Virus record (IMG/VR): IMGVR_UViG_3300037483_000594
Span: 64,001-128,000 of that record
Length of the DNA: 64,000 bases
DNA from: a virus
Reading direction: 5' to 3' (one strand)
Program-made: the position numbers and the translations under genes
Shown: positions 15,020 through 56,040 of the stretch, in pieces
How positions within the stretch are numbered: position 1 is the stretch's first letter
How the letters are laid out: each line of letters opens with the position of its first letter
The notes under the pieces: model-generated
Told to the model about the DNA's origin: nothing
The model's input: the letters and a program-made list of their open reading frames with translations, nothing else
The model's database searches: none

Positions 15020-15447
15020 GGTTCATCCACATCCATCTTCTCGAAGGGGAGAGACCCGTGATCCGGGCACACCGGGGGGCTCCCGGGGCTGGGTTTGCCG
15101 CAGATAGGGCAGACCGCTCCCTCCGAGGCGAGCTTTTGCCCGGCGGGCTGCTCTTGTTGTTCGTAGCCGTACTTGTCCATTGTTTCTCCTTGAGCTGTGC
15201 AAGTATACCAGTTTTTTAACAGGTCGCGGTTGAAAGCTGTCTTGTTGTACGTTGCTCGGAAGAGCGCTTCTCCAGCGTGTAGCATGATGTTGTGGGTTTC
15301 GAGGAACCGTTGAATTTCGCGGGCTTCTTCGGCGTTGACGTGGACCGTGCCCAGTTCCTTGTCGCCGACTGAGAGTGTGAGCATGCTACCACCTTCTGAG
15401 GGTGTCAGCTTCATTGCAAACCGTGTCATCCCTTGGCCTCTCGCCAT
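15004..15447 (-). CDS. hypothetical protein with C-terminal Zn ribbon (may be translated separately from ATG 15180)
   Basis: CPICG...CPDHG; internal AAGGAG RBS before MDKYGY. Confidence 0.55.
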   Translation of the reverse strand: MARGQGMTRFAMKLTPSEGGSMLTLSVGDKELGTVHVNAEEAREIQRFLETHNIMLHAGEALFRATYNKTAFNRDLLKNWYTCTAQGETMDKYGYEQQEQPAGQKLASEGAVCPICGKPSPGSPPVCPDHGSLPFEKMDVDEPCEKK

Positions 15448-21497: not shown

Positions 21498-22583
21498 CTA
21501 TCTACGCACTCCTAGTTCTTCCCAAGGTGACTTCTGGCTGTGAAAGGCGTGGCGTAGGATATCGAGTTTCACTGTCGATATCTTCTGTAGTCTGCTTGTC
21601 ACGGTCACAAAATATGTTGGGTCTGTCACAACCTCGGGGAGCGCTGGTCCAAACTGCATCACGGCGCTAGCACATGGGCTCGGCTTGTAGCCGGACGCCA
21701 GTTTGCTTCTTACCATTTGTGCTTGAATTTCAGGAATGGAGTGGTCAAACGCCACGAGTTGAAGCTCCGGGGTGATCCCCAGGGTGTGCAGGTGTTTTCC
21801 GCAGCGCATTGAGAACCGGAAGATGAAGTGTTCTTCCGAAGGAGGGGTTAGCCGACACCAGGCGCGCAGCCCCTTTGTCGCGTTGTTTTCTGGAAACTGG
21901 TGCACTGCGGCACGCAGTCTTCTTTTTGTTTTGCGGGTAGGGTGCAGCGAGCCGTCTGGGTCGATGGCCACTCCGCAGATGACTCGGCGTTGTGTGCTGC
22001 TCCCGCGCTGGACTGACTGCAGGTGTGTTTTGTTCGGTGAAAGTCGGAATCCGGCGAGGAGGACGGCCACGTTCAGTTTTTCCTCAATGTACTGGGCGGC
22101 GTCGCGTGGCCCGTTCCACGACACCGACATATCGTCAGCGTAGCGTGTGTAAACGAAGTCTAGCCCGTCACGGGTCAGGATGCGGACGATCGCGTCGTCG
22201 ATGGCCTTGCCGGCGATGTTCGCGAGAGCCGGGCTCGTCGGGAGCCCTTGGTGTGCGACCTTGTCCGGAAAGCACGCGCCGTAGTAGTGGATGGACGAGC
22301 GCTTGGTCATGTGCAGAAGCGCGGAAAACGCGGGGTTGTCGATGGCCACAGAGTCAAAGAAGTCCTTGATGTCCGCGGTGAGCGTGTGCTCTTTGTGCAC
22401 GTGCATGGCGGCGTTGGACACCGGGGAACGCCCCGCAACGAAACCGTGTGCGTGGGTGCAGAGGTGGTAGGCCGCGAAGTTCAGCTCCGGGAGGTAGGTG
22501 AACAGGGTGGCCTTCTCGCTTGTCGTGGGCACGTAGATGAGTCGTTTCTTTCCGTGCCCTTTTGGGATCATCACTTTTTTCAT
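21498..22583 (-). CDS. retron-type reverse transcriptase
   Basis: IPK...R.I..P, HGF..GRS...NAAMH (retron region X), DIKDFFDS, QGLPTSP.LAN, YTRYADD, ICG at the retron VTG position. Confidence 0.92.
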   Translation of the reverse strand: MKKVMIPKGHGKKRLIYVPTTSEKATLFTYLPELNFAAYHLCTHAHGFVAGRSPVSNAAMHVHKEHTLTADIKDFFDSVAIDNPAFSALLHMTKRSSIHYYGACFPDKVAHQGLPTSPALANIAGKAIDDAIVRILTRDGLDFVYTRYADDMSVSWNGPRDAAQYIEEKLNVAVLLAGFRLSPNKTHLQSVQRGSSTQRRVICGVAIDPDGSLHPTRKTKRRLRAAVHQFPENNATKGLRAWCRLTPPSEEHFIFRFSMRCGKHLHTLGITPELQLVAFDHSIPEIQAQMVRSKLASGYKPSPCASAVMQFGPALPEVVTDPTYFVTVTSRLQKISTVKLDILRHAFHSQKSPWEELGVRR

Positions 22584-36218: not shown

Positions 36219-36228
36219 TTCTTATAAC
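36219..36228 (-). promoter_or_regulatory. putative phage promoter GTTATAAGAA
   Basis: Repeated motif. Confidence 0.7.
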
Positions 36229-36280: not shown

Positions 36281-39200
36281 ATGGCACGTCTCGACCCAGG
36301 GGAAACTTTTGAAGCGCTGAAGGGGGAGGTCACCAAGGCGATAAAGTCGCAGTTTCCGCAAGTGGGGTCGCAGCACGTTCTTGAGCTGCGCGATGTCGTG
36401 GTGGACGACAACGTCTCGTCGGACGAGGTTTCCACACAGGCCGCAGCGAAGCTAGACGGCAAAACGTTTGGTGTGCCCATAAAAGCGTCTTTGGTCCTCA
36501 GGGACAAGGCGTCCGGAAAGGTGCTCGACGAGCGTGTGCAACGGGTAGGCACCCTTCCGAAGATCACCAGCCGCTACTCTTGGATAGTCCGGGGCACAGA
36601 GTACCAGGTAGACAACCAGTTCAGGCTGCGCCCGGGCGTGTACACGACGGTCCACAAAGACGGAGGGCTCGAGAGCTTCTTGAACTTCGAGGGTATCCCC
36701 CTTCACATAAAGTTTGACCCCAAGTCCAAGAAGTTTGCGGTGAAACACAAGACCGCTTCTCCGCCTCTGTACCCTGTGATGCGTGCACTGGGGTTTTCGG
36801 ATGAACAGTTGCGGGATGCCTGGGGCAAGGAGATCTTGGCGGCGAACCAAGTGGACACCTCCGGGCGCCCTCTGCAGGTGGACAAACGGGCCATGGACTT
36901 CGCCCGAAAGCTCGTCCCTGCCGCAGAGGTGAACACGCTGGCCGAGGCTTCACGAGCCATTAAGACGTACCTCGGTGCCAAGACGTTGCACCCGGACGTG
37001 ACCGAGAAGACGTTGGGAGCTCGGTACGACACCATCACCCCCGACGTCTTTCGAGCCTCAACGGAGCGGCTGCTTGGGATAGCGCGCGGAGAGCAAAAAC
37101 CGGACACCCGTGACGCCCTGCACTTCAAGGAGCTGAACGGTGTCGAGGACCTGTTGTCAGAGCGGCTCGCGAAGAACGCCAAGATGAACGCGCGCCGGAT
37201 AGCCAACAACCTCGACAAGAAGACGGAGATTCGCCAGATCGTTGGGACGGGGCACTTTAACAGCCAGCTACACGGCTTTTTTGCCGACTCAACATTGGCG
37301 TCGCTGGCCCAGCAGACGAACCCCCTCCGCATGATCGATGGGCACACCCGCACCACCATCATGGGAGAGGGTGGGATCAAAAGCGCGAACGCCGTCACCG
37401 ATGAGGCAAAGCTTGTGGACCCCAGTCACTTTGGGGTGCTCGACCCCCTCGTGACTCCCGAGAGCGGGAAGGCCGGGGTCTCGTTGCAGCTCGCCATCGG
37501 CGCCAAGAAGGACGGAAAGACACTCGCCGTTCCCCTCATCAACGTGAAGACCGGGAAGGTCGAGTTCGTCAACACGGCCAAGGTAAACGACGTTGTGGTG
37601 GCCATGCCCGACGCCGTTACCTTCTCGCAAGGAAAGTTGGTGGCCAAGGACGGCGGGTCCACTGTCCGGGCGAGTGTCAAGGACAACGAGTTCCGGGAGG
37701 TCCCTCTCCGGGAAGTGCAGTACGTGGCCCCCAAGGCTACCCAGATGTTCTCCTTGTCGTCGAACTTGGTGCCGTTCCTGGCGTCGAACTCTCCGAACCG
37801 GGCTTCCATGAGCGGGAGGCACCAGGAGCAGGCGATCAGCTTGAAGTACCGGGAGCCCCCCCTGGTGCGCTCGGCCCTTGGGGACAAGAGCTTTGGGGAG
37901 ATCCTGGGGCAGTTCGCCGCGCAGCACTCTCCTGTCTCCGGAGAGGTGGTGGCTGTGGAGCCTGGGCTGATGAAGATCAAAGGCCCTGACGGAGTGAAAG
38001 AGGTACAGCTCTACAACCACTACCCGCTCAACGACAAGAAAGGCCAGTTGCACTCCACCCCCTCCGTGAAGGTAGGGGACAAGGTCAAGGCCGGGCAGCT
38101 CATCGCTGACACGAACTTCAGCGCTGACGGAATCTACGCCCCCGGGAAAAACCTGCAGGTTGCCTACCTACCATGGGGCGGCCAAAGTGTTAGCGGGGAT
38201 ACGTACGTTTATTGGGTTGACTCGCAGGGCGGGCACTTTGGACCAATCGGTAATATGCCGGCGCAGGGGGAAGTGTACGCCAACGTTCTGGATTCAGAAT
38301 CTGTAGAGGGCCGGTTGCATCGTGTTCACAGTTTTATAGGTCATTACACCGCCGAGCCTATGTTTGAAATCAAGATGTTAGAGCCGTTTCGAGTTAAAGC
38401 AACCGCATGTCACAGTTTTATTACAATTGATGAGACAGGGGGCTTTGTAAACATTACACCGGCCAAGATGATACCGCGAAAAACACTCTTGCCTGTTGTA
38501 CAGCCGACGTTGCGCTTCAGTAGTCAAATAGGGCAGATGTTTTGTAAATCAAAAACTGCTGGTGGTATTTCTGTGTCATTTCCTATGGATAAAGACGCGG
38601 GGTACGTTTTTGGTGTTTACACAGCAGAGGGGTGCTCCCTGGGAGGAACTAGGGGGTGTAAAGGACTTAGTATCTCGGTTACTGAGGGGGACCTATTAGA
38701 GCGATTAGAAAGTATTTTAGACAAGTGGGGTGTTAGCCATTCACGACGTTTGCGTGGGGTAAACATACACAATTCCGCAGTCGGCCGCATTGTTACAGAC
38801 GCCTGCGGCTGTCTTGCGCAATTTAAAAAGATACCCGACTTGCTGTGGTCTCAACATCCAGATTTTATTGATGGATTTTTGGACGGGTACTGGAGTGGCG
38901 ACGGTACTTGTTCTGATAAGCAGTTTACTGCGTCGACTGTATCTCGAGAACTGGCGGAGGGGTTGATATTTTTACTTGCGGCACGAGGAGTTAAGGCGCG
39001 GTACAGAACGTACAAGATCCCAGGACATCAAGACCAAAACCTGATAAATGTTTACAGAGAAACACTTGATAAATTTCCAGCACTGAGTTCTGGTCGAAAA
39101 GAACTTCTTCGACAGGAGTTAATAGCCAAGGGTACTGAGCACGGGCGGGATCGAATTCCTATCCCCGAGGCGTATCGCGACGAAGTAAAAAAAGCGCTGC

Positions 39201-42200
39201 GGAGCGTAGGAAGAGCGCTGGGGGGCAGCCCTTACGCTGCACGTCGTGTTTTGAAGCAAGTGCGAGAGCTACTGCCAGAAACGGTACGTCGGTTTGTTGA
39301 TGCTCCGATTTGGTGGGAAGTAGTTGACACGGTCAAGGAAGTGGAGCCGGAGGAGTACGTTTACGATTTGGATATGCGGCCGTTCGGCAATTTTATTGTG
39401 GGGCCCGGTCTTGTTGTACACAACACGTACGAAGACGGGGTGGTGATAAGCGAAGACGCAGCCCAAAAGTTGACGTCCACCCACCTGTACAAGAGCAAGC
39501 TCTCGACGCGTGACGCGCGCGTCGAGCCTGCCAAGCGGTACAAGAGCATCTTTGGGGCTACGATCCCGGCGGAGCGCATGGCAGGCTTGGGGGAAGACGG
39601 GGTAGTGCGGGAAGGGACGATGGTCAAGCCCGGAGATGTTCTCGTGGCGGGCTCTGCAGACCGCGTGTTCACTACCGAAGAGCAGAAGCTGCGTGCGATC
39701 CAGAAGTCCCTCGTGCCCACGAAGCGAAACGCTGCGGTGACGTGGGACGCCGAACACCCAGGGAAGGTCGTGGCCGTGCACCGCGGAAAGAGCGGGGTGG
39801 AGGTGCATGTCGAAACCGAGGAGCCTGCGCAGGTGGGTGACAAGATCAGCTCACACCACGCCGCCAAGGGCATCATCTCCGCGGTCTTGCCGTCTGCGGA
39901 GATGCCCCAGCGCCCGGACGGGAGCCCGATCGACATCGTCATGAACCCGGTTGGCACCGCCGGGCGTCTTAACGTTGGGCAGATCCTGGAAACCGCCGCG
40001 GCCAAGGTCGCGGAGAAGACCGGCAAGCCGTTCATCATCAAAAACTTCGAGACCGAGGATAACCACGGTCTCGTCGCAAAAGCACTGAAGGAGCACGGGC
40101 TCTCCGACACCGAGAACCTGATTGACCCCACCACGGGGAACACCATTCCGGGCATCCTTACGGGGCCGCAGTACATCATCAAGCTGGAGCACCAGGTCGA
40201 CAAGAAGATGAGCTCGAGGGACCGCGGTGCCTACGACCGAAACCTTATTCCGAAGGGCGGCGGGCACGACGGAGGGCAGGCCTTCGGAGCTCTGGGGACC
40301 TACGCACTCCTGAGCCACGGGGCGCGCGGAAAGATCCAGGAGGCGCAGACGCTGCTCTCGGACAAGGGGCAGGGTGGGCTGAACGACGAGTTGTGGGGTG
40401 CTATCCAGTCGGGGGAGCTTATCCCGCCTCCGAAAGCCACGTTTGCCACCAAGAAGTTCGAGGGCTACCTTCGCGGGCTCGGGGTCAACGTCGAGCAGGA
40501 CGGTAACCGGCTCTCGTTGATGCCTGTCACTGACGCGCAGACCCTGGCGCTCTCGAGCGGTGAGCTGCAAGACGCCGGGCGTACCGTGATCGTCAAGAAC
40601 AACCAGCTTGTTCCGGAGAAGGGCGGGCTCTTCGACAAGCGGGCCACTGGCGGGCTGGACGGTCAGAAGTGGGGGCATATCACCCTGGCGAAGCCCATGC
40701 CCAACCCGCTGTTCGAGTCCGGGATAAGGAGCCTCACGGGACTCAAGACCACCGAGTACCAGCAGCTCATCTCCGGAGAGCTTGGGGTAAGCCAGAGCGG
40801 GGCACTGGTCCCCGCGGACACGCGCGGGGCCGAGACAGGGCCCTCGGCTGTGGTGAAGCTCCTCGACAAAGTGGACGTGAAACGCGCACTGCAAGAGGAA
40901 GAAGGCCGCATCGGCGGTCTTCGTGGCCAAAAGCAGAATGAGGTTCGGAAGAAGATAAAGTACCTCAGGGCGCTGGACCGTCTGAAGCTTTCTCCAGCGG
41001 ATGCCTATACCACAAGGCACGTGCCTATTCTGCCGCCATCAATGCGCCCTGTGGCGCTTACCGAAGACGGGAAGCTGCAAAACGACGACCTGAACTACCT
41101 TTACCGCGATCTCGCGGTGCTCAATGACCAGGTGAAGAAGATCCCCGCGGACATGCCCAAGTCTTTGGTGCAAGACAAAGAGGCCTACCTGTACGACAGT
41201 CTCCGCGCCCTCACCGGGCTTGGGGGTACGGTCAACGACAAGTACCCCGGGCTCCTTCACCGGATAGCTGGAAAGACCTCTCCCAAACAGGGGTTCTTCC
41301 AGAACGTGCTGATGAAGCGTAAGCAGGACCTCTCGGGGCGCTCGACTATCATCCCGGACCCCACCTTGTCCTTGGACGAGGTAGGGCTTCCCATCGACAT
41401 GGCGCGCGTCATCTACAAGCCCTTTGTGGTTCGGGAGATGAAAAACTCGCTTGGGCTCAGCCCCCTGGCCGCAAAGAAGCTGATCGACGAGGACGACCCG
41501 CTTGCCCGGAAGGCGCTCGAGCGCGTTGTTTCCGAACGCCCTATCATGCTCAAGCGGGACCCCGCCCTGCACAAACACAGCGTGCAGGGGTTCAAGCCCA
41601 AACTGATTAAAGGGAGCGCCATCAAAATCCCACCGCTGGTCACCAGTGGCTTCAACGCCGATTTTGACGGTGACCAGTGCATCGGTGCTGTTGTTTTGTT
41701 CCTTGAAAGAGATGTATTCAATTATGATATATGCTATTGGACACCAAGGAGGATTACTTTGACAGCGCGGATGCGAGAGCAGATTGGTTATTGTGATGCG
41801 GACGGAGAGTTTGTTGTCTGTGACCTATCGGAAGTGCCCCACGCGGAGGAGTGTGTAACGAAGGGGCACATTGACTATCATCCTGTGTCGGGGGTTAGCG
41901 TGCTCACTCTTGACCCGACGAAGGGGGCATGTTTCGCGGAGGTGACGGGGTGGTCTTATCATCGGCAACGCTCGGTGGAGATAGTCACTCTTGCTAGCGG
42001 GCGGCAGATCGTTACAGACGATGACCCAAGGGCTGTGTTTGGCGTGGATGCTTCGTCGTTGGAGTGGTGTCGGCGTCGTCCGCGTGAGAGTGCAGACCAG
42101 TTTGTGCCTGTTTTGGACGAAGTTCCTGCGTCCTTTACCGAGTTGACAGCGCTCGCGCTACCAAGAGACAAGTCCGGGCGGATGAAGCCAGAGGTGCTTC

Positions 42201-45200
42201 TTGACGCTAAGTTTGGTTACTTTCTGGGTTGTTTGGTGGGGGACGGCTGGGTCACGGGTGATGAGACACTGCGGTTCACATGTATGGCCAGCAGCTTTCC
42301 GGAGGTGCTTGGTACGTGGGAGCGGTCTGCGTCATGCCTTTTCTCAGAGAATCCGCACTTCAGCGAGCAGTACTGCTGTGAGGGGACCTTCGAGAACTCA
42401 AAGGGGACTACGCGCGCAACTATTTCTTCGGTAGCGTTGGCTACGTTTCTGCAGCCACTTATCGGTCATGGCGCGCGCAATAAGCACCTCCCTCCGTTTT
42501 TCTTGTCGGCCCCTGAATCTTTCCGTGTTGGTCTTTTGGCTGGGTTGATGGACACAGACGGCTCGATGTCATGGTCGATGGCAAAAGGCAAGGCGCAGTT
42601 TATGTGCAGTGTTAGCTCCACCAGCATAAGGCTGCTACAGGAAACTCAGCATCTTCTCCGCACGCTTGGAATCACCGCGAGTATCACCACTACCACCACG
42701 CCAAAGGGAGCTGCGTCATGGGTGCTGTCTATCTCTTCTGTGGGGTTGTACGAGCACAGGCGTAAACTTGCTCGACCGGCGCACAGTGGGAAACGCGCTG
42801 TGTGGGAGGAGTTCTGTGCTGGGGACGGCCCGGCTTCCGGAGGTGCTTTTTCACGGTACCGGCTCGTACCGCTACCTTCCAAGCTTGCTGCCAGCCTGCG
42901 GAAGATTGTCACGGTGAACGAGGACCGCAGCGTGTACATGACGCTGTCCAAGGCGATCGATCGGCAGTACATGTCGAAGCTGCTGGCCGAAAAGACTGTT
43001 CGGATGGTGAACGAACGTGGAGGGTGTGCACACCCCTTCTACGCGCGCTGGGCACGGCTGGTCGAAACTCCTGGGATGCACTTTGAGCGTGTTGTGGACG
43101 TGCAGCAGACGAACATTCTAGAGGACGGGTATGACCTAACCGTCCCGGGCTACGAGACCTTTATGGCAGTAGACGGCGTTGTGCTGTCCAACACAATGTC
43201 GGCTTACGTGCCGGTGACCGAAAAGGCTGTTCAGGAAGCGTGGCAGATGATGCCGTCGAACAACCTGTTCAGCCCGGCTTCCGGGAAGCTGATGTACGCA
43301 CCCACCAACGAGATGCAGGTAGGGCTGTACATGGCCACCGAGGTCGGGAAGGACACGGACAAGAAGTTTGCTTCCCTCTCGGAGCTGCGACGGGCAGTGA
43401 ACTCCGGAAAGCTCCACGGGACCGATGTGGTCACGTTGAACGGGCAGCGCACCACCTTCCACCGCGCGGAACTCGTAGACGCACTTCCGGAGCAGGCGCG
43501 GGAGGGGAACAAGCACCTCCTCACGGACCTTGGGTACAGGCTGACCAAGGCCAAGCAAGGCGCGCTGTTCGAGTCGATGGCGCACTCTGGGGCCGACGGC
43601 AAAGAGTTCGGGGCGGCGATAAACGCCGTCAAGGACCTTGGGAACAAGGTGGTGAGCACAGGGGGCTTCTCGTTCGGGCTCAAAGACATCGCTCCTCAGA
43701 AGGCGCTGCGGGCCGCAGCCTTTGCCGATGCGGACAAGGCTGTCGCACAACTGCGTGGTGTCGAACGTGAGGAGAAGATCGTCGACCTCTACTCCAAGGC
43801 GACCACCGCGCTCGAGAAGGACGTGCAGCAGATGGCGCAAGAACGCGCGTCTGAGTCTGCACTGGCCAAGCTGCAGGTAGCTGCCGGGATCAAGGGGAAC
43901 GGTTACAGGCAGCTCGTGGCGGCCCCCGGGCTCTTCGTGGACGGGCTAGGGAGGGTAGTGCCCTCTCCGGTCAAGCGCTCTTACGCGGAGGGGCTGAAGA
44001 GCAGCGACTACTACGTCAGCACCTCTGGGGCGCGGAAGGGCATAATCCAGAAGGTACAGAGCGTGCGCGACCCAGGGTACCTCACCAAGCTCATGGTGAA
44101 CTCCACCATTTCCGAGATGGTGGACAGGGAGGACTGCGGCACCCATTACGGTATCTCCCTGTCCGTGGACGAACCGGATGTGCAAGGGCGCTTCACGGTG
44201 GTTGACCACAAGCTCAGCAACGGCTCGGTCATCCCCGCCGGCACCTTGCTCGACAGCTCTATTGTGACCCGGATACGCAACGACAAGCCCGGGGCCAAAC
44301 TGGTGGTGCGTTCTCCCATGCGATGCACTCACACCACTGGGCTCTGCGCAAAGTGCGCCGGGCTGCAGGCGGACGGGAAGCTTCCGGAAAAGGGCACCAA
44401 CATTGGTATCTTGGCTGCCCAGGCCCTTGGAGAACGTGGAACACAGCTAGCTCTGAAGTCCTTTCACTGTTCGCACGCCAAGACGTTGGTGGTCGTCTGC
44501 AGGCGGGATGACCAAACAGTCAGGGCTATGACACTCGAGGAACTCTACGAGAAGGCGGTCAACCCTGTGGCGGAGGGTTGGCTGATCTACGACGGGGCGT
44601 GGCAGGAGCTCTCCGCGGTGAGCAGGCACCGCCCAACCGACCGTATGATGTTTGTGAGCTGCTCCAGTGTGGCGACGGTCTGCCAGGACAATCATCCCCT
44701 GGCGACCTACGAAAACAGGGTTTCTTGCGAGAAGTGTGGTTACCACCGGCTGAAGAAACCAGGGGCGAACGCTTCCATAAAAAACGGCAAGTTGTACTGC
44801 CCAAAGTGCTTTACCTACCAATACCCTATGGTCCCGGCGGAGGGGGAGGTGAAGTTCCTTGCACCTCAAGAGGTGGAGTGCAAGCGTGTGTACTTGCAGC
44901 GCTGTCTCGACCTCCCGGTTTCTTGTGTTAGAAAAACACCGTGGCTTGATCCGTACCTCGCTGGTATGTACGTGGCAGAGGGGAGTCTGGGGTATGTAGC
45001 AACTGCCTCGGGGGTGAAGAAACCGTACTTCGTCACTATCAGTCAGAACCGCGGGGCCGTGCGCGACAAACTGGAGCAGAAGCTGCCCCCTGAGTGGTGT
45101 GCCAAGCTTGGGGGGCGTGGCGTTGTGATTAACAGAGTCGCGCTCGGTGAGCGACTTGAAACAACGTTCGGCCGCTACTCGCGAAACGTGGCGCTGCCCT

Positions 45201-46387
45201 CCGACTTCCTAGCCTACGAACAGGGGTGGCTCGCCGAGTTCTTGTGTGGGCTGATCGATGGGGACGGGACGATCAAGCCTGACAAGGACGGGGCGCAGCG
45301 TATCGCGATCGACACGACAAGTTTTGCGCTGGCGCAACAGGTCGTGTTTATCTGTTCTCTGTTGAACATCGTGCCTTCTGTCCTGGCTACGTCACACCGA
45401 AAGCTGACCAGACATCAGGGTTTCCGTGTTGTGCTGCGGGTGACAGCGGCAGTGAAAGACTTGTTGAAAGAATCCATAAAGGTCCAGAGTGTGGAGAAAC
45501 TGAGCCCGGACCAGGACTTTCAGAGAACAGGGCGCACGCTGCTCTCGACCAAAAAAGAGGTGTTGTACACAGACGAGTACGTCTACGACGTCACGACCTC
45601 TTCCGGTACGTTTCTCGCGGGTGGGGTGCTCAGTCACAACAGCGGGGGTGTTTACTCCCCTACGGACATGACCTCTTTGGCTGGGAGCGGGATCGAGAGA
45701 GCCATGACGCTCCTTCAGCTTCCGAAGACGGTGAAGGGCTCGGCCACCCTTTCCACGGTCGGGGGTGTGGTGCGAAAGGTCGAGAGGGACGCTGCCGGCG
45801 GGGTCAACATTTTTGTGGACGACGGAAAGGGCCTGCGAAAGCACTACGTGCCCGCGGGTCGCAAGCTCCTGGGCTCGGTTGGAGGGAAGGTGCGCCCCGG
45901 AGACCCCCTTTCTTCAGGGCCGGTGAACCCGCACGACCTGTTGCCGCTTGCCGGGGTAGCACGCACCCAGGGGTTCCTGGCAAACGAGCTGCACAGCATC
46001 TACGGGAAAGAGGGCGTCAGGCGTCGGCACTCCGAGGTTCTGGTGAGGGCTGTGAGCTCGGTGGCGAGGGTAGAGGACCCCGGAGATCACGCGACTCTTC
46101 TTCCGGGGGACTACGTGGACACGAACGCCACGGCGCAGTGGAACGACAAGCACAGGGGCAAGGCGCCTGTGCAGTACACTCCCGTGGTGCGTGGAGTCGA
46201 GCAGCTTCCGCTTGACGTGAGCGAGGACTGGTTGGCCCGCCTGAACCATGAGCGCGGAAGAAAGACCATTATCGAGGCTGCGCAACAAAACTGGTCCACG
46301 GACCTGCACGGTCGGCACCCTATTCCCGGACTTATCTATGGTGTAGAATTCGGAAAAGGAACGAAAGACAAACCCTGGCACTACTAG
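36281..46387 (+). CDS. rpoBC: fused beta-beta' (two-barrel) DNA-directed RNA polymerase with three inteins
   Basis: TPES, GDK...H..KG, KL.H.V..K..R (beta); KxQDLSGRS, RDPALH, NADFDGD, GARKG, GYLTK, AAQALGERGTQL (beta'). Confidence 0.95.
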   Translation: MARLDPGETFEALKGEVTKAIKSQFPQVGSQHVLELRDVVVDDNVSSDEVSTQAAAKLDGKTFGVPIKASLVLRDKASGKVLDERVQRVGTLPKITSRYSWIVRGTEYQVDNQFRLRPGVYTTVHKDGGLESFLNFEGIPLHIKFDPKSKKFAVKHKTASPPLYPVMRALGFSDEQLRDAWGKEILAANQVDTSGRPLQVDKRAMDFARKLVPAAEVNTLAEASRAIKTYLGAKTLHPDVTEKTLGARYDTITPDVFRASTERLLGIARGEQKPDTRDALHFKELNGVEDLLSERLAKNAKMNARRIANNLDKKTEIRQIVGTGHFNSQLHGFFADSTLASLAQQTNPLRMIDGHTRTTIMGEGGIKSANAVTDEAKLVDPSHFGVLDPLVTPESGKAGVSLQLAIGAKKDGKTLAVPLINVKTGKVEFVNTAKVNDVVVAMPDAVTFSQGKLVAKDGGSTVRASVKDNEFREVPLREVQYVAPKATQMFSLSSNLVPFLASNSPNRASMSGRHQEQAISLKYREPPLVRSALGDKSFGEILGQFAAQHSPVSGEVVAVEPGLMKIKGPDGVKEVQLYNHYPLNDKKGQLHSTPSVKVGDKVKAGQLIADTNFSADGIYAPGKNLQVAYLPWGGQSVSGDTYVYWVDSQGGHFGPIGNMPAQGEVYANVLDSESVEGRLHRVHSFIGHYTAEPMFEIKMLEPFRVKATACHSFITIDETGGFVNITPAKMIPRKTLLPVVQPTLRFSSQIGQMFCKSKTAGGISVSFPMDKDAGYVFGVYTAEGCSLGGTRGCKGLSISVTEGDLLERLESILDKWGVSHSRRLRGVNIHNSAVGRIVTDACGCLAQFKKIPDLLWSQHPDFIDGFLDGYWSGDGTCSDKQFTASTVSRELAEGLIFLLAARGVKARYRTYKIPGHQDQNLINVYRETLDKFPALSSGRKELLRQELIAKGTEHGRDRIPIPEAYRDEVKKALRSVGRALGGSPYAARRVLKQVRELLPETVRRFVDAPIWWEVVDTVKEVEPEEYVYDLDMRPFGNFIVGPGLVVHNTYEDGVVISEDAAQKLTSTHLYKSKLSTRDARVEPAKRYKSIFGATIPAERMAGLGEDGVVREGTMVKPGDVLVAGSADRVFTTEEQKLRAIQKSLVPTKRNAAVTWDAEHPGKVVAVHRGKSGVEVHVETEEPAQVGDKISSHHAAKGIISAVLPSAEMPQRPDGSPIDIVMNPVGTAGRLNVGQILETAAAKVAEKTGKPFIIKNFETEDNHGLVAKALKEHGLSDTENLIDPTTGNTIPGILTGPQYIIKLEHQVDKKMSSRDRGAYDRNLIPKGGGHDGGQAFGALGTYALLSHGARGKIQEAQTLLSDKGQGGLNDELWGAIQSGELIPPPKATFATKKFEGYLRGLGVNVEQDGNRLSLMPVTDAQTLALSSGELQDAGRTVIVKNNQLVPEKGGLFDKRATGGLDGQKWGHITLAKPMPNPLFESGIRSLTGLKTTEYQQLISGELGVSQSGALVPADTRGAETGPSAVVKLLDKVDVKRALQEEEGRIGGLRGQKQNEVRKKIKYLRALDRLKLSPADAYTTRHVPILPPSMRPVALTEDGKLQNDDLNYLYRDLAVLNDQVKKIPADMPKSLVQDKEAYLYDSLRALTGLGGTVNDKYPGLLHRIAGKTSPKQGFFQNVLMKRKQDLSGRSTIIPDPTLSLDEVGLPIDMARVIYKPFVVREMKNSLGLSPLAAKKLIDEDDPLARKALERVVSERPIMLKRDPALHKHSVQGFKPKLIKGSAIKIPPLVTSGFNADFDGDQCIGAVVLFLERDVFNYDICYWTPRRITLTARMREQIGYCDADGEFVVCDLSEVPHAEECVTKGHIDYHPVSGVSVLTLDPTKGACFAEVTGWSYHRQRSVEIVTLASGRQIVTDDDPRAVFGVDASSLEWCRRRPRESADQFVPVLDEVPASFTELTALALPRDKSGRMKPEVLLDAKFGYFLGCLVGDGWVTGDETLRFTCMASSFPEVLGTWERSASCLFSENPHFSEQYCCEGTFENSKGTTRATISSVALATFLQPLIGHGARNKHLPPFFLSAPESFRVGLLAGLMDTDGSMSWSMAKGKAQFMCSVSSTSIRLLQETQHLLRTLGITASITTTTTPKGAASWVLSISSVGLYEHRRKLARPAHSGKRAVWEEFCAGDGPASGGAFSRYRLVPLPSKLAASLRKIVTVNEDRSVYMTLSKAIDRQYMSKLLAEKTVRMVNERGGCAHPFYARWARLVETPGMHFERVVDVQQTNILEDGYDLTVPGYETFMAVDGVVLSNTMSAYVPVTEKAVQEAWQMMPSNNLFSPASGKLMYAPTNEMQVGLYMATEVGKDTDKKFASLSELRRAVNSGKLHGTDVVTLNGQRTTFHRAELVDALPEQAREGNKHLLTDLGYRLTKAKQGALFESMAHSGADGKEFGAAINAVKDLGNKVVSTGGFSFGLKDIAPQKALRAAAFADADKAVAQLRGVEREEKIVDLYSKATTALEKDVQQMAQERASESALAKLQVAAGIKGNGYRQLVAAPGLFVDGLGRVVPSPVKRSYAEGLKSSDYYVSTSGARKGIIQKVQSVRDPGYLTKLMVNSTISEMVDREDCGTHYGISLSVDEPDVQGRFTVVDHKLSNGSVIPAGTLLDSSIVTRIRNDKPGAKLVVRSPMRCTHTTGLCAKCAGLQADGKLPEKGTNIGILAAQALGERGTQLALKSFHCSHAKTLVVVCRRDDQTVRAMTLEELYEKAVNPVAEGWLIYDGAWQELSAVSRHRPTDRMMFVSCSSVATVCQDNHPLATYENRVSCEKCGYHRLKKPGANASIKNGKLYCPKCFTYQYPMVPAEGEVKFLAPQEVECKRVYLQRCLDLPVSCVRKTPWLDPYLAGMYVAEGSLGYVATASGVKKPYFVTISQNRGAVRDKLEQKLPPEWCAKLGGRGVVINRVALGERLETTFGRYSRNVALPSDFLAYEQGWLAEFLCGLIDGDGTIKPDKDGAQRIAIDTTSFALAQQVVFICSLLNIVPSVLATSHRKLTRHQGFRVVLRVTAAVKDLLKESIKVQSVEKLSPDQDFQRTGRTLLSTKKEVLYTDEYVYDVTTSSGTFLAGGVLSHNSGGVYSPTDMTSLAGSGIERAMTLLQLPKTVKGSATLSTVGGVVRKVERDAAGGVNIFVDDGKGLRKHYVPAGRKLLGSVGGKVRPGDPLSSGPVNPHDLLPLAGVARTQGFLANELHSIYGKEGVRRRHSEVLVRAVSSVARVEDPGDHATLLPGDYVDTNATAQWNDKHRGKAPVQYTPVVRGVEQLPLDVSEDWLARLNHERGRKTIIEAAQQNWSTDLHGRHPIPGLIYGVEFGKGTKDKPWHY
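38186..39424 (+). mobile_element. intein 1 (LAGLIDADG, 413 aa) in the beta part
   Basis: PWGGQ|SVSG...VVHN|TYEDG; AT-richer than the flanks. Confidence 0.9.
41678..43192 (+). mobile_element. intein 2 (LAGLIDADG, about 505 aa) next to NADFDGD
   Basis: DGDQ|CIGA...VLSN|TMSAY; LAGLMDTDG. Confidence 0.85.
44468..45640 (+). mobile_element. intein 3 (LAGLIDADG + Zn ribbon, 391 aa) in the trigger loop
   Basis: KSFH|CSHA...LSHN|SGG; LCGLIDGDG. Confidence 0.9.
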
Positions 46388-51760: not shown

Positions 51761-51975
51761 TGCCATTCGTCTCGGAGAGTCAGCGCCGAAAGTTCTACGC
51801 CATGAAAGAGCGCGGAGAGGTCAGCGCAAAGGTCGTCAAGGAGTTCGAGAAGGGCTCCCCGGAGGACCTCCCGGAACGTGTGAAGACCGCTGCCTACTGC
51901 GAAGCCTACGGGCTCGAGCTGCTCAAGGGGGCAGCCCCCCGCTGGAAACAGCTTCTCCGTGGCAAGGAGATCTGA
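51757..51975 (+). CDS. small K-x-A protein
   Basis: MPF.S..QRR N-terminus; VKTAA. Confidence 0.65.
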   Translation: MMPFVSESQRRKFYAMKERGEVSAKVVKEFEKGSPEDLPERVKTAAYCEAYGLELLKGAAPRWKQLLRGKEI

Positions 51976-52499
51976 TGCGCGCGCTTCTGGTGCAGGGGGG
52001 AGCACTCGCTGACACGCTCCTGAAGCTTGCGGAGAAGCCTCTCCGTGAGCGCGTAGAGGTGTACGCTCTCAAAGACGGAAAGGTCCTGGCCGGCATCTAT
52101 CCGGACGGGTCAGTGGGTGTGCCTGGGGGAGGGGTGTCCTCCGGGGAGTCCCCCGAGCACGCGGCAAAGCGGGAGTACAAGGAAGAGGCAGGCCTGACCG
52201 TCAAGAACCTGCAGCCCCTTCCCGTGCCCCCACTTGTTGAAAAGTGGGAGAAGCGGAAGGACCTCACCGACAAGGAGAAGGAGCGGCGCAAGGAGTTCTC
52301 CGGGTCGCGCACTCACTTCTACATAGCCGACCTTTCCGGAAAAGGCGGGAAGGCGGTGGACCCCTCCGCGTTGAAGAGGCTCGTTCCGCGTTCGGTAGCG
52401 GCTCTTGTCGACAAGCTGCAAGAGCAAGCCGACTCCGGGAAGAAGCGGGACAAGGTACGCCTCAAGGTACTCGAGACTGTCCAGGAGTTAACCAGCTAA
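51975..52499 (+). CDS. Nudix hydrolase with K-x-A leader
   Basis: GGGVSSGESPEHAAKREYKEEAG Nudix box. Confidence 0.9.
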   Translation: MRALLVQGGALADTLLKLAEKPLRERVEVYALKDGKVLAGIYPDGSVGVPGGGVSSGESPEHAAKREYKEEAGLTVKNLQPLPVPPLVEKWEKRKDLTDKEKERRKEFSGSRTHFYIADLSGKGGKAVDPSALKRLVPRSVAALVDKLQEQADSGKKRDKVRLKVLETVQELTS

Positions 52500-52521
52500 A
52501 AAAGTGGGGGTTGCCCCCCAC
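52494..52521 (-). terminator. intrinsic terminator
   Basis: GTGGGGG-caa-CCCCCAC followed by TTTTTTAGC. Confidence 0.75.
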
Positions 52522-52529
52522 CGTGGCCG

Positions 52530-52760
52530 CTACTGCGGCCGAACCTCCTCCTCGCCGACGATGGTAGCGGTTCCGGTGCGGTCAAACCGCACCGTGGGGA
52601 TGCCGTCGTCGACTCCCTCGACGACGCCCACGTCCCCCGGTTCCGCGTGGATGTACGCGCCCTGGGGGAACTGGGCGTTGGGGTCTCCGGGGAGGCGACC
52701 GTTCTCGGTCACCTGCGCGGTGGCCATCAATCGCTGGCCCTTCTCAAACGGGTACGTCAT
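52530..52760 (-). CDS. small SH3/NifZ-like beta protein
   Basis: F..GQR..A...V..NG..PG......GDVGVV; GAAAGG RBS. Confidence 0.55.
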   Translation of the reverse strand: MTYPFEKGQRLMATAQVTENGRLPGDPNAQFPQGAYIHAEPGDVGVVEGVDDGIPTVRFDRTGTATIVGEEEVRPQ

Positions 52761-52771
52761 GCCTTTCCTTT

Positions 52772-52802
52772 CTAGCAAAAAGTGATGGGAGTTTCCCACC
52801 AC
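52772..52802 (-). terminator. terminator after the tRNA-like RNA
   Basis: GTGGTGGGA-aac-TCCCATCAC followed by TTTTT. Confidence 0.7.
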
Positions 52803-52805
52803 TAG

Positions 52806-52874
52806 AGCCGAGACCTGGGCTTGCACCAGGATCTCCTCCTCAACGGAGGCGGGTTACCTTAACCCCATCTCGGC
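52806..52874 (-). tRNA. aberrant tRNA: full cloverleaf with a 5-nt anticodon loop
   Basis: GCCGAGA/TCTCGGC; GGGT-taaggta-ACCC; CCTCC-gttga-GGAGG; CCTGG-tgcaagc-CCAGG; 3' T-CTA. Confidence 0.7.
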
Positions 52875-52904
52875 GGTGGGTGCAGCGCTGGGCGCTGCGC
52901 CCCT

Positions 52905-53222
52905 CTAGTACTTGGACAGAACCTGCCCCACGGTCCAGCGGGGGTCGTGGGACACGGCGACTACGTACCCCTGGCACTTGGGGTCGTAGATCGCCGTTGC
53001 GCCGAACCGGTGCACCAAGAAGTGCACCAGTACGGCGCAGACAGGGAGGCTCATGGGCCCGCTTATGCGGACCAAGCCCCCGCCGATCTCGAGACCCTTC
53101 AAGGTCTCGTTCTCGAGCTCCGCCACGATCTGGGCGTTCGTGGCGGTCTCCCCGAAACCCACCGTCAGGTCGGTTACCTGATCGGTGGAGTGCGGCTCCC
53201 GCCGCACATGGAAAAGTGACAT
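52905..53222 (-). CDS. csx3: Csx3/Crn3-like cyclic oligoadenylate ring nuclease
   Basis: 105 aa after AGGAGGTG; V.ISG...L......H..H.......YDPK..GYVVAVSH.P...VG.V resembles the Csx3 pattern. Confidence 0.75.
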   Translation of the reverse strand: MSLFHVRREPHSTDQVTDLTVGFGETATNAQIVAELENETLKGLEIGGGLVRISGPMSLPVCAVLVHFLVHRFGATAIYDPKCQGYVVAVSHDPRWTVGQVLSKY

Positions 53223-53233
53223 TGTCACCTCCT

Positions 53234-53289
53234 TGGCGCAGGTGAGGGGGAGTCGAACCCCCTGACGCCGAAGCGTCTCCAACACCTGC
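53234..53289 (-). ncRNA. 56-nt mini tRNA-like RNA (no D stem, UUCG hairpin in place of the anticodon arm, G-CCA end)
   Basis: GCAGGTG/CACCTGC; GACGC-ttcg-GCGTC; AGGGGG-TTCGACT-CCCCCT; GCCA. Confidence 0.7.
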
Positions 53290-53486
53290 CCCAGGGTCAC
53301 GCCTTACCTGGATGGCGCTTCACTTTTTGTTTCCATCCAGAGTGTGAAGTCTCTGGACCGGGCTACTGCTCCACCAAAGAGAGGGCCGGGACAAAGGGCG
53401 CCGCTTCGCGCCGATTCGGACACCTCCTGCGGACCATGCGCTGCCCGTACCACGCAGAAGGCTGCGAGGGTTTCTTTGTACTCAGA

Positions 53487-53606
53487 TCAGCGCTTCCGCG
53501 CTGAGCGGAAGAACCCATAGGGGTCCTTCCCGGTTACGCCCTCGATCACGATGGCGAGAAGAACGCACACAGCCACAAGGGCGATGATGAGGAACAATGT
53601 TGTCAC
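53487..53606 (-). CDS. 39-aa membrane micropeptide (not in ORF track)
   Basis: GGAGGTG RBS; MTTLFLIIALVAVCVLLAIVIEGVTGKDPYGFFRSARKR. Confidence 0.6.
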   Translation of the reverse strand: MTTLFLIIALVAVCVLLAIVIEGVTGKDPYGFFRSARKR

Positions 53607-53619
53607 GCTACACCTCCAG

Positions 53620-53690
53620 TGCCCCTGGCAGGAATCGAACCTGCTCCTCCTGGGTGTAAACCAGGCGCTCGTCCTTCGAGCTACAGGGGC
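53620..53690 (-). tRNA. tRNA-Val(TAC), CCA not encoded
   Basis: GCCCCTG/CAGGGGC; anticodon arm CCTGG-TTTACAC-CCAGG; GCAGG-TTCGATT-CCTGC. Confidence 0.9.
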
Positions 53691-53717
53691 GGAGTAGGAC
53701 AGGGGGTGTCCTACATA

Positions 53718-53727
53718 TTCTTATAAC
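53718..53727 (-). promoter_or_regulatory. putative phage promoter GTTATAAGAA
   Basis: Repeated motif followed by a leader hairpin GTAGGACA/TGTCCTAC. Confidence 0.7.
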
Positions 53728-53732
53728 AGAAG

Positions 53733-54146
53733 TCACTGAAATGTATCAACAATCTCCTTGTTGTGTTGGTAGATGGTATCCAGCAGGGCGTCGTACCGTT
53801 GGAGAAGGGCGCTGTCCCACGTGGTGATGAAGAAGCCCACCTCTCCGCCCGGGAAGGACACCCTGTACTCTCCGTCACAGTAGGCAGCGCAGCGAACGGG
53901 CTCGAGGGCCTCCCAGGCCTTCTCGAGCAGCGCCTCGGGCTCTGGGCCCACAAGGCGCTCGAGGGAGGGAAGGTTGTTGTCAACCACCCGTTGGAGCAGC
54001 CGGCCCACCTGCCGCATCGCCACGGCCTCTTCGAGGCTGATCTCTACCGGGGCTGCCCCCGGCAGCCGCAGGCTGACCTCGTAGACCCCTCGGGCCACTC
54101 CACCCCACCTCGGAGGGTCCATCAGTTTCCGGATAAGGGCTTTCAT
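53733..54146 (-). CDS. hypothetical early protein
   Basis: GGAGG RBS; has its own promoter motif. Confidence 0.7.
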   Translation of the reverse strand: MKALIRKLMDPPRWGGVARGVYEVSLRLPGAAPVEISLEEAVAMRQVGRLLQRVVDNNLPSLERLVGPEPEALLEKAWEALEPVRCAAYCDGEYRVSFPGGEVGFFITTWDSALLQRYDALLDTIYQHNKEIVDTFQ

Positions 54147-54165
54147 CTCTAACCTCCATTGCGCC

Positions 54166-54175
54166 TTCTTATAAC
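54166..54175 (-). promoter_or_regulatory. putative phage promoter GTTATAAGAA
   Basis: Repeated motif. Confidence 0.7.
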
Positions 54176-54207
54176 AGCGGCTTTTTCTTATGTTCCAAGC
54201 GTCTGTG

Positions 54208-54243: not shown

Positions 54244-56040
54244 ATGGACGACCTTTACAAGCGCGCGCAGGACAGTGTCAGCACCGGGTTGTCGGACGAA
54301 GAGACCGAGGCCTTGCTGGACGCGGAGATGGAAGAGGAGGAGCAGGACAGGTACGACGCTCTTCTGGAGGGGGAGGTGGCGGTGGGGAAGGCCCCGGTGG
54401 TACCGGTGTCGCTGAGCAAGTACACCGAGTTCAGTGTGCGGATAAACACCGGGTACGACATCGAACCTTTCTCGTTCAAAGGCAGGGAGCACTTCCGGAA
54501 GGTGTACGACACACCTGACAAGGACGTCCTAGTGCTAGCCAGTCGGCAGTCGGAGAAGTCGACGTTCCTGGGGAACAAGATCTTGGCGTTGTCGGCTATC
54601 ATCCCCGGGTTTCAGACGCTGTACGTTTCTTCTTCGGCAACGCAGTCCAAGGTCTTCTCGGAAGACCGGATACGCGAGCCTATCCTGAACTCTCCGCGAC
54701 TCCAGCAGAGTGTTGACCCGCGTGCCCAGAGTGTTTTTTCCAAGAGGTTTCGTAACAGCTCCATGATCAGGTTGCGCTACGCCTACCTGACAGCGGACCG
54801 AGCTCGTGGTGTGAAGTCAGACGGGATCTTTATCGACGAGATTCAGCACATCTTGCCGTCCAACATCCCTATTATCGAGCAGTGTGCGTTCCACTCGATT
54901 CACAAGTACCGCACGTACTCCGGGACCCCGTTGACCCTCGACAACACCATCGCTGTCCTGTGGGACTCCCACTCCACGCAGAACGAGTGGATCGTCCCCT
55001 GCCGGGCCTGTGGCCAGGAGAAGAAGCGGGACACCTGGTGGTGGAACGTCCTGGGTCCCGGGAACATCGGCAAGGAAGGACTGGTGTGCGAGCACTGTCA
55101 CCGTCCCATCAACGTGCGCGACCCCGATGCTCAGTGGGCGTCGATGCAGCCGGTGAACGCGGACAACGCTCTGCGGGTCAACTTCCGCGGTTTCCGGATT
55201 ACGCAGTTCATGGTCCCGTCGCTGAACTGGCGGAAAGACATCCTGGAGAAGAGGGAGGAGTACTCCACAGCGCAGTTCAACAACGAGGTGTGTGGGCTGA
55301 GCTACGACTCCGGGAGCCGGCCTATTTCCAAGCAGCAGCTTATCCGCGCCTCACGTGCGGACGTGGACATGTCCGAGATCGAGAAGAACGTGGCCCGGTG
55401 CACCGGAGGGGTGTTCGCTGGGGTCGACTGGGGCCAGGACACGGAGAACTCCTTTACCGTGCTCACCCTGGGCGGGTACATGACCCACGGCTTCCAGATC
55501 TTTTTTGCCCACCGGTTCGTGGGGGCCGACTGTGACCCCGATGTCCAGCGCGAGAAGGTTGCCAAGCTGCTGGGCGCCGTCCACTTCCGGGTGTGCGGAG
55601 CGGACTACGGCGGCGGCTTCGGGCGTAACGACTGGCTGATGCGCAAGTTCGGAATGAAAAAGTTTGTGCGGTTTCAGTACGCCCCCAACCCCGTGCGGAA
55701 GATCGTGTGGAACCCCAAGCTCCTGCGGTTTGTGCTCCACCGCTCGGAGGTGATGGGCGACTTTTTTAGCGCCTTAAAGGAGCATAGGATCAGCCTTCCG
55801 AACTGGAAACAGTTTTCCGAACCACACGGCCGGGACATCCGCAACATCTTCACTGAGTTCAACACCCAGCGCCTTCTCATGCAGTACAAGCACACCCATG
55901 GCAAAACCGACGACACCTTCCACTCCATCATCTACTGCGTCCTGGGGAGCATGCTCGTGAAACCCCGCCCTGACATCCTGATCCCCCTCAAGGAAGGGAA
56001 CGTCAGCTTTGACCGTGGCGGCCTAGACCTCGCTGCCTAG
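54244..56040 (+). CDS. terminase large subunit (GpA-like)
   Basis: SRQSEKST Walker A, FIDE Walker B, SGTP, CxxC..CxxC, GVDWG nuclease Asp, DD..H. Confidence 0.88.
   Translation: MDDLYKRAQDSVSTGLSDEETEALLDAEMEEEEQDRYDALLEGEVAVGKAPVVPVSLSKYTEFSVRINTGYDIEPFSFKGREHFRKVYDTPDKDVLVLASRQSEKSTFLGNKILALSAIIPGFQTLYVSSSATQSKVFSEDRIREPILNSPRLQQSVDPRAQSVFSKRFRNSSMIRLRYAYLTADRARGVKSDGIFIDEIQHILPSNIPIIEQCAFHSIHKYRTYSGTPLTLDNTIAVLWDSHSTQNEWIVPCRACGQEKKRDTWWWNVLGPGNIGKEGLVCEHCHRPINVRDPDAQWASMQPVNADNALRVNFRGFRITQFMVPSLNWRKDILEKREEYSTAQFNNEVCGLSYDSGSRPISKQQLIRASRADVDMSEIEKNVARCTGGVFAGVDWGQDTENSFTVLTLGGYMTHGFQIFFAHRFVGADCDPDVQREKVAKLLGAVHFRVCGADYGGGFGRNDWLMRKFGMKKFVRFQYAPNPVRKIVWNPKLLRFVLHRSEVMGDFFSALKEHRISLPNWKQFSEPHGRDIRNIFTEFNTQRLLMQYKHTHGKTDDTFHSIIYCVLGSMLVKPRPDILIPLKEGNVSFDRGGLDLAA

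Follow-up and report, generated by a model that had tools for sequence, protein, structure and literature searches.

The window analyzed in this study is a 64,000-nucleotide (nt) stretch of DNA that corresponds to bases 64001-128000 of a 170,135-bp virus record in IMG/VR (IMGVR_UViG_3300037483_000594), a phage record whose completeness was estimated at 94% and whose G+C content is about 61%. Within the window, a cassette read from the minus strand (52503-54177; all positions are those of the window) holds the stretch 52772-53727, which had been flagged in a preliminary description. The stretch carries a gene for a homolog of the Csx3/Crn3 ring nucleases (csx3) bracketed by two non-standard tRNA-like elements, together with a tRNA-Val(UAC) gene (Table 1).

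The preliminary description had listed on the minus strand a promoter, a leader hairpin, a tRNA-Val(TAC), a 39-amino-acid (aa) hydrophobic peptide, a structured spacer, a 56-nt mini-tRNA, a Csx3-like gene, a tRNA shape with a 5-nt anticodon loop and a terminator, and all of these observations save that on the spacer were confirmed. The promoter, leader hairpin, tRNA-Val and terminator were found in their places from the sequence itself, RNA folds, ARAGORN and Rfam. The 39-aa open reading frame (ORF) is present with a Shine-Dalgarno (SD) sequence and is predicted to be coding, the mini-tRNA is made up of 52 nt plus G-CCA and its descriptor match is unique in the genome, the Csx3-like gene is borne out by its Pfam score, fold and catalytic residues, and the tRNA shape with the short loop (GUUGA) is a perfect cloverleaf at 52807-52874. 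The spacer was found to fold no better than shuffled sequences (z -1.1).

Table 1. Features of the minus-strand cassette, listed from upstream to downstream
Feature	Position	Strand	Description
12-mer copy of the promoter-like motif, CTGTTATAAGAA	54166-54177	-	exact repeat of 53718-53729; upstream of the 137-aa ORF
137-aa ORF	53733-54146	-	first gene of the cassette; from the ORF list
Sigma-70-like promoter	53718-53749	-	-35 TTGATA (53744-53749), 18-nt spacer, extended -10 TGTTATAAG
Promoter-like motif GTTATAAGAA	53718-53727	-	read from the sequence
Leader hairpin	53694-53714	-	8 perfect bp, 5-nt loop; at the predicted transcript start, 3 nt before tRNA-Val; from the RNA fold
tRNA-Val(UAC)	53619-53690	-	canonical; A as discriminator; CCA not encoded; followed after 3 nt by an SD
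39-aa ORF	53487-53606	-	GTG start, SD GGAGGTG 6 nt before; predicted coding
Spacer	53290-53486	-	197 nt, non-coding
Mini tRNA-like element	53234-53289	-	52 nt (53238-53289); 56 nt including G-CCA to 53234
csx3 SD AGGAGGTGA	53225-53233	-	abuts the encoded CCA of the mini element
csx3	52905-53222	-	105-aa Csx3/Crn3-family ring nuclease homolog
GC-rich hairpin	52878-52902	-	between the csx3 stop codon, which it follows directly, and the cloverleaf, 3 nt away
Cloverleaf tRNA-like element	52807-52874	-	four perfect Watson-Crick stems of 7/4/5/5 bp, the 4-bp stem extendable to 6; no CCA
Intrinsic terminator	52776-52803	-	10-bp stem (hairpin 52781-52803) and U run
76-aa ORF	52530-52760	-	past the cassette terminator; small beta-barrel protein
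Second terminator	52503-52522	-	after the 76-aa ORF

The Csx3/Crn3 homolog

The membership of the 105-aa protein in the Csx3/Crn3 family is well supported by its sequence, which scored 31.1 bits against Pfam PF09620 (cut-off 21). In the representative library, 226 homologs were found at an E value of 0.001 or less, and a profile built from 60 homologs reached the chains of the Archaeoglobus fulgidus enzyme (AfCsx3) in the PDB with an E value of 9e-6. The AlphaFold2 model has a predicted local distance difference test score of 96, and its best PDB matches in Foldseek were all AfCsx3 chains, such as 6yud_H with a template modeling (TM) score of 0.74 and a root-mean-square deviation of 2.3 over 102 columns, with no other fold near. 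Among the 60 homologs, residues H67, H71, D80, K82 and H92 vary little or not at all (H67, H71, D80 and H92 being invariant or at least 90% conserved), and they align with AfCsx3 H57, H60/H61, D69, R71 and H80, which were shown by mutagenesis to be needed for cleavage of cyclic tetra-adenylate (cA4) (PMC7371418).

The nearest cellular homolog examined, with 46% identity and the common motifs GP..S, HxxxH, DPK and H, is encoded on a plasmid of Nostoc sp. UHCC 0302 directly upstream of cas10-csm2-csm5-cas6, a type III-A operon. No cas genes were found around the phage csx3, nor around the six nearest Csx3 homologs read, whose neighbours are small unannotated ORFs and genes for single-stranded DNA-binding protein, HNH, integrase and methylase. 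Judged from these neighbours, the six homologs lie in phage- or mobile-element-like contexts, and the missing type III linkage is the pattern expected for a viral copy. The contig of the second-closest homolog carries, 1.2 kb upstream of csx3, a gene for a CCA-adding enzyme (PolyA_pol, HD and tRNA_NucTran2_2 domains; positions 1502-2830 of contig L004).

A tblastn search of 50,697 GenBank phage records returned no Csx3, and AcrIII-1, Csx20 and Csx16, but not Crn3, are named in a published survey that covered 28,114 phage genomes (PMC12409355). No publication on a phage-encoded Csx3 was found either. The AcrIII-1 domain DUF1874 (PF08960) had no match in the genome, and the structural model of the phage protein matches Csx3 and not DUF1874. 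Because the protein is a family member by sequence and fold, has the catalytic residues and occurs in a virus, its most likely role is that of a ring nuclease acting against cA4 signalling, i.e., against type III CRISPR immunity. The signal-degrading counter-defence enzyme proposed in the preliminary description is thus the natural reading of a genuine Csx3/Crn3 family member that has no cas genes nearby.

tRNA-Val and the two tRNA-like elements

The tRNA-Val gene was called by ARAGORN and scored 64.2 bits with the Rfam tRNA model RF00005 (cut-off 29), with a full cloverleaf, and it is the sole tRNA found in the genome by ARAGORN or the Rfam model. The codon that it reads, GUA, makes up 12% of the valine codons in this GC-rich phage. 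The preliminary description had taken this tRNA as a replacement for a host tRNA cleaved by a defence nuclease; nothing was found in favour of this role, and ordinary codon supplementation fits equally well.

Of the two tRNA-like elements, the one located between csx3 and the terminator has the cloverleaf as its minimum-free-energy fold. It retains U8, U54, C56 and A58, as well as G53-C61, a D loop containing GG and a variable region of 4 nt, while its T loop (UGCAAGC) has G at position 55. With a strict cloverleaf descriptor, only this element and tRNA-Val matched in the 340 kb of both strands, in comparison to 0.053 hits expected per simulated genome, a figure that is generous in that the descriptor was composed after the element had been seen. 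The element is on the same strand as tRNA-Val and 745 nt away from it, and it is very unlikely that a second match would fall at this distance from the only tRNA by chance.

We considered whether the cloverleaf could be a working or recently disabled tRNA-Gln(UUG) with an odd loop, which together with tRNA-Val(UAC) would supplement A-ending codons read poorly by a GC-rich host. At lax settings, and only then, ARAGORN reports it as a Gln(ttg) tRNA whose loop is C-G-UUG-A-G, and both tRNAs would read A-ending codons that are in use, CAA accounting for 28% of the glutamine codons and GTA for 12% of the valine codons. However, the alternative 7-nt loop (CGUUGAG) has G in place of the near-universal U33, the possible C32-G38 pair reduces the loop to the 5 nt GUUGA, U55 is also replaced by G, and the element was neither called by ARAGORN at default settings nor matched by the Rfam tRNA model RF00005 at an E value of 10 or less. 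A decoding tRNA-Gln is therefore very improbable.

The other, smaller element, which we call the mini element, has three helices: an acceptor stem of 7 bp, a 5-bp hairpin capped by a UUCG loop, and a T stem of 6 bp that closes the loop UUCGACU. It has neither a D arm nor an anticodon arm, while a discriminator G and an encoded CCA are present. Its fold has a z score of -3.1. A descriptor that combined an acceptor stem of 7 bp with a T stem of 6 bp and the loop TTCRA, applied to both strands of the genome, matched once, at this element, in comparison to 0.17 hits in simulated genomes and none when the CCA was required. The best Rfam alignment was to tRNA-Sec (RF01852; 28.5 bits, E value of 0.009 in 3.5 kb), below the cut-off of 47 bits, in which 35 model positions corresponding to the D and anticodon arms are deleted and the hairpin with the UUCG loop is placed at the long variable arm. 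Among the IMG/VR matches to the pattern "CTTCGG, 5 nt, T arm", 20 of 21 are part of tRNAs that ARAGORN calls and whose variable arm is long. Based on these matches and the tRNA-Sec alignment, the mini element looks like a class II tRNA shape reduced to its acceptor stem, variable arm and T arm. A fuller tRNA of 88 nt around it, suggested by ARAGORN at lax settings, is not credible since mismatched stems are needed.

All stems of both elements are perfectly paired, the acceptor/T-arm helix, which RNase P requires, is intact in each, and both are on the strand of tRNA-Val within 900 nt of it. Because they are unique by strict descriptors, have perfect stems and lie close to the only tRNA, the two elements are real, non-random and tRNA-derived, of a non-standard kind that is unable to decode. 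Several other identities were tried and rejected. No tmRNA was found by ARAGORN, the score for a YrlA Y-RNA-like RNA was 15.0 bits, far below the family cut-off, and that for mascRNA (RF01684) was 15.2 bits against a cut-off of 42.5. An origin as duplicated attachment-site halves was rejected, as no repeat is common to both elements, and antisense action was rejected, as the complementarities found were only chance-level 10-nt matches.

One rival explanation is that the two elements are neutral relics of a small tRNA cluster acquired with tRNA-Val and have no present function, one having lost the D and anticodon arms and the other having lost 2 nt of the anticodon loop and acquired a T-loop substitution, with Csx3 still being an anti-CRISPR ring nuclease. 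Phage tRNA genes do cluster, and odd tRNA-like sequences left uncalled are found beside real ones: at positions 7513-7595 (plus strand) of another IMG/VR phage sequence (L013), a tRNA-like sequence with a long variable arm and a poor acceptor stem, uncalled by ARAGORN, lies 90 nt upstream of tRNA-Ser and tRNA-Met genes. That no other csx3 examined has tRNA-like elements beside it, and that the cloverleaf gave no Rfam tRNA hit, would also suit relics. On the other hand, decaying tRNA pseudogenes usually lose stem pairing and tertiary-contact nucleotides, while here the stems are perfect and the tertiary-contact nucleotides mostly kept (U8, D-loop GG, G53-C61, U54 and A58). The deletion in the mini element takes out exactly two arms and leaves the acceptor/T helix with its G-CCA intact, and the flanks of both elements are tightly organized, with 3-nt linkers, hairpins and SD sequences. 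We consider relics an unlikely explanation, though one that carries real weight.

The preliminary description had instead taken the elements as non-decoding decoys released from the transcript, with tRNA-Val as a replacement tRNA. In this reading, the freed elements would be stable small RNAs that act in trans, occupying defence nucleases directed at tRNA or enzymes that bind tRNA, and tRNA-Val would stand in for a host tRNA that has been cleaved. Phage tRNAs are known to neutralize tRNA-cleaving defences, with PARIS (PMC11464382), retron PtuAB (PMC11555353) and anticodon-loop variants (PMC10264068) as examples. Both elements have a tRNA-like acceptor/T domain, the cloverleaf keeps most contacts of the L shape, and the mini element, with its G73-CCA and a hairpin resembling a variable arm, could be bound or charged by enzymes that ignore the anticodon. 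However, nothing was found that points to release, stability or binding of the elements. The anticodon arm, which anticodon nucleases read, is missing from the mini element, making it a poor decoy for them, the phage genome encodes neither a CCA-adding enzyme nor RtcB, valine is not among the documented targets in the papers on PARIS, PtuAB and anticodon-loop variants, and the elements have no conserved linkage with csx3. Action in trans is for these reasons improbable. It is decidedly improbable that anticodon-less mimics, cut out by host RNase P and RNase Z, accumulate as a new class of phage small RNAs that bind a host factor directed at tRNA and block it (for example, a synthetase, a defence nuclease, or a toxin modifying the CCA or acceptor end), in which case the locus would be a protein-plus-RNA counter-defence operon together with Csx3.

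Promoter motifs and layout of the proposed transcription unit

Across the 170-kb genome there are exactly four copies of the motif GTTATAAGAA, all of them on the minus strand and in 4 of 4 cases 20-40 nt upstream of an SD sequence and a start codon; with one mismatch allowed, about 0.6 matches would be expected in the window by chance. The copy at 53718-53727 forms part of the sigma-70-like promoter in Table 1, which was overlooked by the consensus scan only since its -10 element ends in G. Another copy heads the leftward replication operon, which contains genes for a helicase, uracil-DNA glycosylase, a DnaB-like helicase, a reverse transcriptase, a primase, a family A polymerase and a RecA-like protein, and since this operon starts with the same promoter motif, early or middle expression of the cassette is plausible. 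The copy at 36219-36228 lies just upstream of a single 3,368-aa ORF (36281-46387, plus strand) and points the opposite way.

Downstream of the promoter the units are closely packed. In the first part, the leader hairpin is followed after 3 nt by tRNA-Val and after another 3 nt by an SD sequence; in the middle, the mini element with its CCA is followed by the SD of csx3; and in the last part, the csx3 stop codon is followed by the GC hairpin, 3 nt, the cloverleaf, 3 nt and the terminator. A linker of about 3 nt thus separates each tRNA or tRNA-like unit from an SD sequence or a stable hairpin, and the 3' untranslated region of csx3 is structured (z -4.4 for the fold of 52765-52915). Because all of these elements lie between one promoter-like motif and one terminator, the single transcript proposed in the preliminary description is plausible.

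Small ORFs, spacer and genomic setting

The 39-aa ORF, whose coding status we infer from its sequence, would encode a 20-residue hydrophobic run predicted as a helix and then a basic tail, and it had no match in Pfam, PHROG or NCBIfam. The same three databases gave no match for the 137-aa ORF, for which no usable look-alike was found in the Atlas. For the 76-aa ORF, the look-alikes in the Atlas are NifZ (structure TM score of 0.73) and the cyanobacterial small proteins NdhO and SipA, which are leads only. The cyanobacterial look-alikes of both Csx3 and the 76-aa protein hint at a cyanobacterial host, which is a weak lead.

The spacer between the 39-aa ORF and the mini element had no Rfam match. 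That it might be a decayed second copy of csx3 was unsupported, as a profile search of its three frames gave only E values above 0.4 and the best local alignment with csx3 DNA was 15 nt long. In this alignment, 53283-53301 (the leader of the mini element and the 5' strand of its acceptor stem) and 52920-52938 (the last csx3 codons) agree at 14 of 15 nt and both read (L/V)GQVL, a likeness that is not significant since 7 of 300 shuffles matched or beat it.

To the left of the cassette, a Nudix hydrolase gene (51975-52499, plus strand; Pfam E value of 1e-10), the last of a plus-strand run, converges on it, and to the right lies the gene for the terminase large subunit (54244-56040, plus strand; PHROG 675, E value of 2e-47). 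The flanking gene order is kept in phages whose terminases are 50-60% identical, and at the same spot these relatives have nothing or unrelated small minus-strand genes, without the cassette and without a tRNA. Because of this absence, the cassette is judged to be a variable accessory island in the genome of this large, uncultured phage. No relative of the cassette was returned when IMG/VR was scanned with single proteins, namely Csx3, the terminase and the 137-aa ORF.

Elsewhere in the window, the replication operon includes a gene for a 361-aa reverse transcriptase (21498-22583, minus strand; Pfam RVT_1, E value of 3e-17) between those for the DnaB-like helicase and the primase. The gene for the family A DNA polymerase (15426-18611, minus strand) has a LAGLIDADG/Hom_end insertion, probably an intein, and several of the terminase relatives also carry inteins.

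Proposed role of the cassette

The reading that we favour is that of an accessory cassette in which an anti-type III CRISPR Csx3 is combined with tRNA-derived processing elements that act in cis. Leftward transcription of the cassette would start at promoters of the host type (sigma-70-like, with an extended -10), of a class common to the replication genes. Its main cargo would be a stand-alone Csx3/Crn3 ring nuclease, kin of the enzymes of bacterial type III CRISPR loci, which would degrade cA4 during infection so that the effectors activated by cA4 stay off. The same transcript would carry tRNA-Val(UAC) and the two non-decoding tRNA-derived elements.

An acceptor/T minihelix with RCCA is sufficient as a substrate of bacterial RNase P, and RNase Z is blocked by CCA. 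RNase P would cut on the 5' side of each element and RNase Z on the 3' side of those without CCA, dividing the transcript into tRNA-Val, the mRNA of the small ORF and the csx3 mRNA. At its 5' end the csx3 mRNA would then carry a paired, tRNA-like domain, and the GC hairpin would close off its 3' end. The local layout, with its 3-nt linkers, hairpins and SD sequences, is the reason why we favour a role in cis, and we infer, from this one genome and by analogy, that the tRNA-like elements act mainly as processing and end-protection signals.

Several points weigh against this reading. The protein falls below the cut-off for equivalogs of NCBIfam TIGR02579 (24.1 against 55.4 bits), and because it passes the PF09620 cut-off and misses this one, it is assigned to a divergent clade of the family. 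P56 and K82 stand at the positions of R46 and R71, which contact cA4 in AfCsx3; since the cas10-adjacent Nostoc Csx3 has the same P/K replacements, these seem to be a trait of a bacterial CRISPR-linked clade rather than a sign of decay. Cellular Csx3 relieved immunity only partially in a plasmid assay (PMC7371418). With regard to the RNA elements, pattern scans found no relative of the mini element in the JGI metagenomes and none of the cloverleaf in IMG/VR, and no tRNA or tRNA-like element was detected by ARAGORN and Rfam in the seven nearest csx3 contexts. Since these related contexts show no such association, csx3 and tRNA-like RNA do not appear to form a conserved module, and the synteny of the two that the preliminary description had envisaged was seen neither there nor in the terminase relatives.

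Taking these points together with the rival explanations above, we give the favoured reading as a whole a probability of roughly 0.55. The interpretation in the preliminary description is partly supported, in that the ring nuclease and the single transcript fit the results, while nothing was found to favour the replacement tRNA or the decoys.

If the favoured reading is true, Csx3/Crn3 would join AcrIII-1 as a viral enzyme directed against type III CRISPR (Csx16 and Csx20 are also present in phage genomes). The cooperative kinetics of cellular Csx3/Crn3 have been interpreted as a safeguard for the host, and a viral copy would offer a direct test of the same enzyme as a weapon. The cassette would also be a case, in one genome only, in which structures derived from tRNA have been put to new use around a protein-coding gene of a bacteriophage, one of them a minimal acceptor/T element whose CCA is fused to a ribosome-binding site. 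Should the transcript be cut in the way proposed, bacterial viruses would have their own counterpart of tRNA punctuation and of mascRNA-type end formation, and the cassette would offer a convenient natural module for the control of mRNA ends.

Comparison with known systems

The phage protein has the same fold (TM score of 0.74), a similar size of about 100 aa and the same His/His/Asp/His set as Crn3/Csx3 of A. fulgidus (AF_1864; PDB 3WZG, 3WZI, 6YUD and 6VJG), and 6YUD, one of the structures matched by the phage model, is AfCsx3/Crn3 bound to cA4. Crn3/Csx3 enzymes are characterized by a cleavage of cA4 that depends on Mn2+ and involves a tetramer of two dimers. The two differ in that AfCsx3 has HxxH spacing in comparison to HxxxH in the phage protein, and R46/R71 in comparison to the P/K pair that the phage and Nostoc proteins share. 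In contrast to CRISPR-linked Csx3, the phage copy sits without cas genes and scores below the NCBIfam equivalog cut-off. The proposed role is similar to that of AcrIII-1 (DUF1874), in which a virus-encoded enzyme destroys cA4 and blunts type III signalling (PMC7371418, PMC12409355). The fold of AcrIII-1 is unrelated, and the phage protein may work in a similar manner without being a DUF1874 member.

Phage tRNAs that counter nucleases, such as the T5 tRNA-Tyr acting against retron PtuAB, the tRNA-Lys acting against PARIS, and the anticodon-loop variants, are likewise encoded in accessory regions, and the phage cassette resembles these cases in lying beside a counter-defence gene and in having one altered anticodon loop. 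The known anti-nuclease tRNAs are, however, decoding-competent with 7-nt loops, while the elements of the cassette have a 5-nt loop or no anticodon arm.

For the proposed role in cis, tRNA shapes without a working anticodon that are embedded in longer transcripts are known from mascRNA and MEN-beta (RF01684) and from mitochondrial tRNA punctuation. There, the ends of the adjoining RNA are set where RNase P and RNase Z cut, and a structure close by shields the new end; the order in which the GC hairpin, 3 nt and the cloverleaf follow csx3 is similar. These systems are eukaryotic, and since the mascRNA score lies far below its cut-off, the phage element is an analogy and not a member of the family, with its processing predicted from sequence. 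Among bacterial and phage examples, the C4 RNA of P1/P7 and the CI RNA of P4 are small RNAs cut out by RNase P that act as antisense regulators with known targets, and the tufB operon is a tRNA-mRNA co-transcript. As in the cassette, acceptor/T structures are located inside operon transcripts in these cases, whereas the complementarities of the cassette elements are only chance-level 10-mers. In general, a ring nuclease encoded by a virus would be of a known kind, and so would a tRNA-mRNA co-transcript that carries tRNA-like signals for its processing; the new part of the cassette would be the bracketing of csx3 by tRNA-like elements.

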